In this document: positions 46,872-48,608 of the stretch, piece by piece
Numbering within the stretch: position 1 is the first letter of the stretch
Layout: the number at the start of each line of letters is the position of its first letter
Assembly: GCF_001677475.2 (NCBI RefSeq)
Contig: NZ_CP015229.1
Direction: 5' to 3' (one strand)
From: Escherichia coli
GTDB lineage: Bacteria; Pseudomonadota; Gammaproteobacteria; Enterobacterales; Enterobacteriaceae
DNA length: 64,000 nt
Notes under the pieces: generated by a model
Told to the model about the DNA's origin: nothing
The model's database searches: none
What the model saw: the letters and a program-made list of their open reading frames with translations, nothing else
Translations under genes and position numbers: made by a program

Positions 46872-48608
46872 ATGCCGCGTGGCCTGGAATTACTGATTGC
46901 TCAAACCATTTTGCAAGGCTTCGACGCTCAGTATGGTCGATTCCTCGAAGTGACTTCCGGGGCGCAGCAGCGTTTCGAACAGGCCGACTGGCATGCTGTC
47001 CAGCAGGCGATGAAAAACCGTATCCATCTTTACGATCATCACGTTGGTCTGGTCGTGGAGCAACTGCGCTGCATTACTAACGGCCAAAGTACGGACGCGG
47101 CATTTTTACTGCGCGTTAAAGAGCATTACACGCGGCTGTTGCCGGATTACCCGCGCTTCGAGATTGCGGAGAGCTTTTTTAACTCCGTGTACTGTCGGTT
47201 ATTTGACCACCGCTCGCTTACTCCCGAGCGGCTTTTTATCTTTAGCTCCCAGCCAGAGCGCCGCTTTCGTACCATTCCCCGCCCGCTGGCGAAAGACTTT
47301 CACCCCGATCACGGCTGGGAATCTCTACTGATGCGCGTTATCAGCGACCTGCCGCTGCGTCTGCGCTGGCAGAATAAAAGCCGTGACATTCATTACATCG
47401 TTCGCCATCTGACGGAAATGCTGGGGACAGACAACCTCGCGGAAAGTCATTTACAGGTGGCGAACGAACTGTTTTACCGCAATAAAGCCGCCTGGCTGGT
47501 AGGCAAACTGATCACGCCTTTCGGCACATTGCCATTTTTGCTGCCGATCCACCAGACGGACGACGGCGAGTTATTTATTGATACCTGCCTGACGACGACA
47601 GCCGAAGCGAGCATTGTTTTTGGCTTTGCGCGTTCTTATTTTATGGTTTATGCACCGCTGCCCGCAGCGCTGGTCGAGTGGCTACGGGAAATTCTGCCAG
47701 GTAAAACCACCGCTGAATTGTATATGGCTATCGGCTGCCAGAAGCACGCCAAAACCGAAAGCTACCGCGAATATCTCGTTTATCTACAGGGCTGTAATGA
47801 GCAGTTCATTGAAGCGCCGGGTATTCGTGGAATGGTGATGTTGGTGTTTACGCTGCCGGGCTTTGATCGGGTATTCAAAGTCATCAAAGACAGGTTCGCG
47901 CCGCAGAAAGAGATGTCTGCCGCTCACGTTCGCGCCTGCTATCAACTGGTGAAAGAGCACGATCGCGTGGGCCGAATGGCGGACACCCAGGAGTTTGAAA
48001 ACTTTGTGCTGGAGAAGCGGCATATTTCCCCTGCATTAATGGCATTACTGCTCCAGGAAGCAGCGGAAAAAATCACCGATCTCGGCGAACAAATTGTGAT
48101 TCGCCATCTTTATATTGAGCGGCGGATGGTGCCGCTCAATATCTGGCTGGAACAAGTGGAAGGTCAGCAGTTGCGCGACGCCATTGAAGAATACGGTAAC
48201 GCTATTCGCCAGCTTGCCGCCGCTAACATTTTCCCGGGCGACATGCTGTTTAAAAACTTCGGTGTCACCCGTCACGGGCGTGTGGTGTTTTATGATTACG
48301 ATGAAATTTGCTACATGACGGAAGTGAATTTCCGCGACATCCCACCGCCGCGCTACCCGGAGGACGAACTTGCCAGTGAACCGTGGTACAGCGTCTCGCC
48401 GGGCGATGTTTTCCCGGAAGAGTTTCGCCACTGGCTATGTGCCGACCCGCGTATTGGTCCGCTGTTTGAAGAGATGCACGCCGACCTGTTCCGCGCCGAT
48501 TACTGGCGCGCACTACAAAACCGCATTCGTGAAGGGCATGTGGAAGATGTTTATGCATATCGGCGCAGGCAAAGATTTAGCGTACGGTATGGGGAGATGC
48601 TTTTTTGA
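46872..48608 (+). CDS. aceK: Isocitrate dehydrogenase kinase/phosphatase
   Basis: 578-aa ORF; AAGGAG Shine-Dalgarno 7 nt upstream. Confidence 0.96.

Follow-up and report, generated by a model that had tools for sequence, protein, structure and literature searches.

The 32 bp shared by the 3' ends of aceK and arpA are, in our reading (probability about 0.8), an insertion scar, a structural by-product of the entry of the AT-rich arpA/espL4 island, without demonstrated function. The overlap lies at positions 48577-48608 of the window, i.e., the whole stretch of 64,000 nucleotides of Escherichia coli DNA that was analyzed. The junction between native and foreign DNA runs inside this overlap, and therefore the stop codon of each gene comes from the DNA of the other. 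The overlap itself was already known, as it belongs to the standard E. coli K-12 annotation: aceK and arpA (b4016/b4017) occupy 4218596-4220332 and 4220301-4222487 in NC_000913.3; the locus is the one studied here, and its 32-bp overlap is identical. What we add is small and regards why the overlap exists, namely that the native/foreign junction passes through it.

In the window, aceK (46872-48608, plus strand) encodes a 578 amino acid protein and is the last gene of aceBAK, and arpA (48577-50763, minus strand; espL4 in RefSeq) encodes a 728 amino acid protein. The aceK stop is TGA at 48606-48608 and the arpA stop is TAA on the minus strand, which is read as TTA at 48577-48579 on the plus strand. 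The length of 32 bp given in the earlier note is exact, based on the ORF list, the raw sequence, both stop codons and the RefSeq annotation of other genomes. AceK was identified by an NCBIfam equivalog (E 1e-283) and by both Pfam AceK domains, and it matches PDB chains 3LC6 and 3EPS over its full length. ArpA shows a ShET2/EspL-type N-terminal domain (Pfam Toxin_15/ShET2, PF07906, E 5e-95, residues 121-379) followed by ankyrin repeats (Ank_2). Judged by these sequence matches, both overlapping ORFs can firmly be taken as genuine genes and not as chance ORFs. Its N-terminal domain would place ArpA in the ShET2/EspL family, for which a type III effector role is predicted; the sequence search of solved structures gave no EspL-family structure for ArpA, with only the ankyrin repeats matching, and no experiment on EspL4 was found in the literature. 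An identical 32-bp overlap is present in the RefSeq annotation of a K-12 derivative, of O157:H7 and of strains N3 and EC7518, and it is also kept in a divergent arpA allele whose protein is 87% identical. Compared with K-12, the window is ~98% identical, with an aceA-aceK spacer of 48 bp instead of 182 bp. An annotation artefact was considered as the origin of the overlap and was dropped, since both stops are unambiguous and the full-length, 578 amino acid AceK has been crystallized.

The anatomy of the junction can be read by comparison with genomes that have no arpA. In these genomes homology to the window ends at 48583-48590, inside the overlap (48583-48586 by megablast, together with alignments), and allele alignment places the left breakpoint at ~48589 and the right one at ~51066, each within about 3 bp to either side. 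The overlap is divided by the left breakpoint into an aceK-native part (48577-48588), which is common to the arpA-less genomes and in which arpA ends (three codons for T-V-R, then the stop), and an island-derived part (48589-48608), in which aceK ends (codons for G-E-M-L-F, then the stop). Read on the opposite strand, the arpA TAA falls in TTT AGC, the conserved Phe-Ser codons of aceK, and the AceK tail, which ends in SVRFV in its ancestral form, ends here in SVRYGEMLF. In the mechanism that we propose, the island would have taken the place of ~17 bp, which comprised the end of aceK (its two final codons and its stop) together with part of the aceK-iclR spacer. Each ORF would then cross the junction to the first stop, with aceK reading 5-6 codons of island DNA and arpA reading three codons of aceK-native DNA.

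The island (48589-51066, ~2.48 kb) contains arpA and its 5' region and is delimited by GC content, junction alignments and presence or absence in other genomes. GC is 32-41% across ~48600-51050 compared with 52-55% in the flanks. While aceK is present in 5,425 of the 5,426 complete E. coli genomes, the arpA segment is found in 4,113 of the 5,426, so that 24% are without it, and arpA was not found at aceK in any of the loci recovered from 80 other species, including E. albertii, E. whittamii and Escherichia sp. MOD1. The description of arpA as an acquired gene in the earlier note is thus borne out. The arpA-less AceK is a 574 amino acid protein with the tail RFSVRFV (three E. coli, E. albertii, E. 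whittamii and the cryptic Escherichia lineage MOD1), and in the same arpA-less E. coli and the three other Escherichia species only 15-16 bp separate the stops of aceK and iclR, the ancestral convergent neighbor of aceK (51080-51904, minus strand, in the window). Because of the shared tail and spacer, the absence from outgroups and the drop in GC, we take the arpA-less state as ancestral and arpA as part of an acquired ~2.48-kb segment. Direct convergence of aceK on iclR is the rule in at least 70 Enterobacterales species, and the two genes overlap in 13 species in all, by 4 bp in 11 of them and by 47 bp in the other two. Tight or overlapping convergence at the aceK 3' end therefore predates arpA, and a crowded end is ordinary at this locus.

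With its deviant base composition and its distribution, patchy within the species and missing at the same site in sister species, the segment fits the definition of a genomic island. As for the hallmarks of mobility, the segment encodes only arpA and has no integrase, transposase or tRNA gene, and neither flanking direct or inverted repeats nor a target-site duplication were found at its edges (48589 and 51066). About half of the arpA-positive genomes do not have the full-length island; those sampled carry an internally deleted arpA.

Two other origins of the arrangement have to be weighed against the insertion of the island. One possible option is that arpA between aceK and iclR is ancestral and that the arpA-less arrangement is a deletion product, an option that would fit the frequency of internal arpA deletions (a 524 amino acid form occurs in thousands of sequences). 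Yet the same aceK tail and the same 15-16 bp spacer are found in three Escherichia species and in arpA-less E. coli, the convergence of aceK on iclR is usual across the Enterobacterales, and the base composition of the island is foreign; we consider an ancestral arpA to be extremely improbable. Another hypothesis places the formation of the junction in a diverged donor that bore arpA between aceK and iclR. Homologous recombination would then have brought the finished junction, with short stretches of aceK and iclR on either side, into the E. coli lineage, and the overlap would be older than the present host lineage. This hypothesis draws on a cluster of synonymous substitutions at 48571-48576 (plus strand), 1-6 bp from the arpA stop, where the Gln-Arg codons are CAA AGA in every arpA-positive allele examined and CAG CGG (or CAG CGA) in every arpA-less allele examined. 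A simple one-step insertion gives no account of these three substitutions beside the junction, and they hint at a more complex history. The identical junction of the allele with 87% protein identity points in the same direction, as does a published remark on some phylogroup D strains, which probably received the arpA region by horizontal transfer (PMC7656184). However, no donor appeared among the 80 other species sampled around aceK, and, bar those six bases, aceK upstream of the junction is not unusually diverged. Moreover, no protein more than 38% identical was found outside E. coli, assembly artefacts aside: an exhaustive HMMER search gave ArpA relatives of at most 38% identity, none aligning past about residue 690, and a word-indexed search gave only E. 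coli alleles. An imported junction is, in our view, unlikely, and even if true it would merely relocate the origin of the same kind of scar. If a donor that carries CATACCGTACGCTAAATCTTTG beside an espL-like gene in a non-aceK context exists, the breakpoint would lie to the left of the arpA stop. Two proteins that appeared to be homologues with 71-76% identity are not credible. One of them (P0055) belongs to an E. coli assembly whose genes at this locus are all fragmented, and the other (P0019) is abnormal, rich in lysine and asparagine, and looks corrupted.

Another question is whether the length of the overlap calls for an explanation beyond insertion. In a simulation, the points at which ORFs enter the plus strand of the island and the antisense strand of aceK were chosen arbitrarily. 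The resulting overlaps had a median length of 114 nt (5-95% range, 27-330 nt), and 7% of them did not exceed 32 nt. The observed 32 nt is at the short end but within the chance range, and is unremarkable. The length is also neither constrained nor fixed. A T6 run inside the overlap (48601-48606; A6 in the arpA sense) is shortened in a rare T5 allele (loci L085 and L086), in which aceK encodes 579 amino acids, arpA 545 amino acids and the overlap is 99 bp, so that 32-bp and 99-bp forms both occur. Two sources show this T5 allele, one a complete genome and the other an assembly made independently from a public sequencing run. The divergent allele alters residues of both proteins inside the overlap. 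Past the RQRF motif, almost every genus of the Enterobacterales has an AceK tail of different length and sequence. Residue 564 is the end of the Pfam kinase domain, and one crystallized construct extends to residue 571. Because of this hypervariability and of these end points, the new aceK tail is probably neutral.

The geometry of the two genes leads to the question of how their transcripts end. The earlier note excluded a conventional intrinsic terminator for both genes. It is correct that there is no intergenic room and that no hairpin followed by a T-run is found within ~480 nt 3' of either stop. The plus strand shows no terminator-like site after 48608, and the nearest one on the minus strand (48088-48073) is ~490 nt past the arpA stop. 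The whole region has six terminator-like sites compared with 3.1 ± 1.6 in shuffled sequence, which is not clearly above expectation. The exclusion, however, is too strong. Intrinsic terminators can lie within coding DNA, and aceK has an internal one (47210-47239, plus strand) with a 7-pair hairpin and then CTTTTTAT; it is the site at which the Hfq-dependent 'aceK int' RNA ends, and is an exact, 30/30 match to K-12. In K-12, this RNA ends at 4218963 and its terminator is strong, with a score of 5.9 (Adams et al. 2021, PMC7815308). Folding of both strands around both stops and around the ancestral junction gave no significant structure (region z-scores of -1.1 to +1.4), and an Rfam search of 45400-52200 at a permissive threshold gave just two chance-level matches. 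There is no dedicated signal within the 32 bp.

The published transcription data refer to K-12 cultures in LB or glucose and to BL21(DE3), in which arpA is disrupted, and neither to acetate-grown cells nor to this strain, and the K-12 positions were moved to the window by orthology (~98% identity). On the plus strand of K-12, a Rho region was reported whose best position, 4220399, lies 67 nt beyond the aceK stop (4220332), with a Rho score of 3.0 and p = 2e-8 (PMC7815308). The published Rho map is of low resolution, as it compares 800-nt windows: reads upstream and downstream of the Rho peak were 104 and 59 without bicyclomycin, and 122 and 208 with bicyclomycin (PMC7815308). Read-through that is antisense to arpA, one of the claims of the earlier note, hence exists in K-12, but it is weak and is lowered by Rho, though not abolished. 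The counterpart of the K-12 Rho peak is position 48675, which lies in the first plus-strand RNA past the aceK stop (48609-48727), antisense to arpA. At 48610-48727 this RNA has a C/G ratio of 1.4-1.55 with 14-15% G, which is a modest rut-like character. No Term-seq 3' ends are listed on either strand for K-12 positions 4220100-4220699, and the K-12 tables have neither a Rho region nor a 3' end antisense to aceK (PMC7815308). In BL21(DE3) premature termination was found in aceK, and the AceB:AceA:AceK protein ratio was ~0.3:1:0.003, with aceK the least expressed gene of the operon (PMC5435950). B strains carry a disrupted arpA, and in the BL21(DE3) transcriptome the gene was reported as 'not expressed at all' (PMC5435950); the arpA 5' end appears among the 'promoter islands' in a table of the H-NS section of another paper (PMC3661553). 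As suggested by the K-12 data, most aceBAK transcription would end early, at the intrinsic terminator in aceK, and few transcripts would reach the overlap. The remainder may be ended diffusely by Rho, roughly in the first hundred nt past the aceK stop, where ribosomes would be gone from the RNA; for the present strain, we infer this role of Rho from the published K-12 data.

It was proposed in the earlier note that read-through from the induced aceBAK operon, and likewise from arpA, couples the expression of arpA to induction of the glyoxylate bypass. Such an excludon-like overlap would act by transcriptional interference or by RNase III cleavage of the duplex. Antisense coupling is possible in principle, although weakly supported. 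No terminator-like site lies close behind either stop, the K-12 plus-strand reads antisense to arpA rise when Rho is inhibited (PMC7815308), and 3' overlaps of terminator-less convergent genes are an accepted excludon-type class (PMC7154746). The 3' ends outside the partner gene that the earlier note named as a refutation are impossible for a full-length mRNA of either gene, because each complete ORF enters its partner by at least 32 nt. Against coupling, Rho curbs the read-through right after the aceK stop, and most aceBAK transcripts appear to stop early, within aceK, the least expressed gene of the operon. The reverse arm, in which arpA RNA is antisense to aceK, has no counterpart in the K-12 tables and found no support in BL21(DE3), where the disrupted gene gave no detectable RNA. 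A quarter of the genomes are without arpA and about half of the arpA-positive ones are without the full-length island, the length of the overlap is polymorphic, and no conserved structure is detectable. The link to glyoxylate-bypass induction is thus unsupported and, taken as an explanation of the overlap, coupling is distinctly unlikely; if true, it would be a minor example of an excludon. Mutual antisense interference is probably small under the conditions studied, which points to an overlap without regulatory consequence.

The insertion scar can also be compared with known systems. Convergent overlapping pairs can arise when a stop codon is lost or displaced, as in aceK/iclR of other Enterobacterales. 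There too the shared stretch ranges from a few bases to some dozens, and nothing hints at a special function; unlike in the aceK/iclR overlaps, the partner here was acquired horizontally and the overlap spans the native/foreign junction. The excludon concept reportedly comes from Sesto et al. 2013. The aceK/arpA pair resembles an excludon (PMC7154746) in its convergence, its missing intervening terminator and some antisense read-through, but the likeness is only geometric, as RNA of one partner was undetectable in BL21(DE3), expression of the other is weak and the read-through is limited by Rho. Collision-type bidirectional terminators are described as Rho-independent, with sharp 3' ends, and as working best for highly expressed pairs (Ju et al. 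2019; bioRxiv 10.1101/2022.10.23.513370). The present locus shares with them a convergent pair and an overlapping 3' region, but it differs in having no listed 3' ends, a Rho-sensitive region, low expression and no significant hairpin, and it does not fall in this class. Closer in kind are Rho-dependent termination past a stop codon and the suppression of antisense transcription by Rho and H-NS in foreign, AT-rich DNA, as the region just after the aceK stop is bicyclomycin-sensitive, although the rut-like character is weak here (C/G ~1.4-1.5).

A comparison that is of more interest than the coupling of arpA regards aceBAK read-through into iclR in strains without arpA. In such strains, read-through from the induced operon would be antisense to iclR, the gene of its own repressor, and a feed-forward loop may result. 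The 2.5-kb arpA island, AT-rich and Rho-sensitive, might then insulate iclR from aceBAK read-through in the arpA-positive lineages, a speculative and quite improbable idea; if it is true, the dynamics of glyoxylate-shunt induction would differ between strains with and without arpA.

The overlap is also of practical concern, since aceK-arpA is a target of the Clermont quadruplex phylotyping PCR, which uses arpA, present or absent, as a standard marker (PMC7656184). Its primer ArpA1.r is among the E. coli typing primers in widest use. Based on the primer sequences of the same paper (PMC7656184), the AceK.f site is at 48198-48217 (plus strand) and the ArpA1.r site is at 48578-48597 (minus strand), wholly within the overlap and across the junction, and the two primers give an amplicon of 400 bp (48198-48597). 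Both the annotation and the phylotyping result can change with polymorphisms of the overlap, for example in the T5/T6 run or at bases covered by the primer.

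The DNA at the junction between aceK and the acquired low-GC island that carries arpA differs between the alleles with and without this island. Directly adjoining the junction, at 48571-48576, there are three synonymous differences: the arpA-less alleles read CAG CGG and the arpA-bearing alleles CAA AGA, both of which encode Gln-Arg. Among the alleles examined this difference is fixed between the two groups, and the cluster may be a trace of recombination with a diverged donor. In arpA-less genomes aceK converges directly on iclR, and the spacing of these two genes was also compared in other Enterobacterales (loci L038, L049 and L051-L062). 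In 11 species their ends share 4 bp, in Enterobacter quasihormaechei and Pseudescherichia vulneris the overlap is 47 bp, and in further species they are separated by a gap of up to more than 2 kb. This range of spacings marks the aceK-iclR junction as a hotspot of evolutionary rearrangement.

The 32-bp overlap of aceK and arpA (48577-48608) also has a rare allele, found in two of the compared loci (L085 and L086), in which the T-run at 48601-48606 is one base shorter and both reading frames are shifted. As a result aceK encodes 579 amino acids, arpA encodes a protein of 545 amino acids whose last 31 residues form a new tail, and the overlap is enlarged to 99 bp. Deletions within arpA itself are common, and at least 80% of the island is covered in only 2,003 of the 4,113 arpA-bearing complete genomes. 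Sampled examples of the genomes below this coverage show an in-frame deletion of 612 bp (~49010-49621 in the window, arpA residues 381-584) that takes out most of the ankyrin repeats and leaves a 524 amino acid protein annotated as 'ShET2/EspL2 family'; in these sampled alleles the aceK overlap is unaltered. Between 48974 and 49571 arpA contains a 22-nt motif in three diverged copies at a spacing of 288 nt, a pattern that reflects the periodicity of the ankyrin-repeat region. The internal deletion that is so common in arpA could plausibly have used these copies as its substrate.

A strong intrinsic terminator on the plus strand lies inside the aceK coding sequence (47210-47239), with a 7-bp stem of which six pairs are G-C, followed by CTTTTTAT. 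The identical sequence forms the 3' end of 'aceK int', a published Hfq-dependent RNA of K-12. At the right-hand junction a weak terminator-like hairpin on the minus strand (51081-51102) occupies the final iclR codons; its T-run extends across the iclR stop and is located in DNA that is kept at this junction. A second, 7-bp hairpin without a U-tract (GGGCAGA...TCTGCCC, 51040-51062) lies just within the island.

The aceA-aceK spacer is 48 bp in the window (46824-46871) and in strains N3 and GmM077, 124 bp in R11, 182 bp in K-12 and 215 bp in DA61218; its length is therefore strain-variable. The window probably belongs to a lineage that is not represented among the 5,426 complete E. coli genomes, for example Shigella or a cryptic Escherichia clade: in these genomes the best identity to the window is at most 97.7% over the aceK-arpA span (46800-50900) and at most 98.4% over metH (52083-55787).
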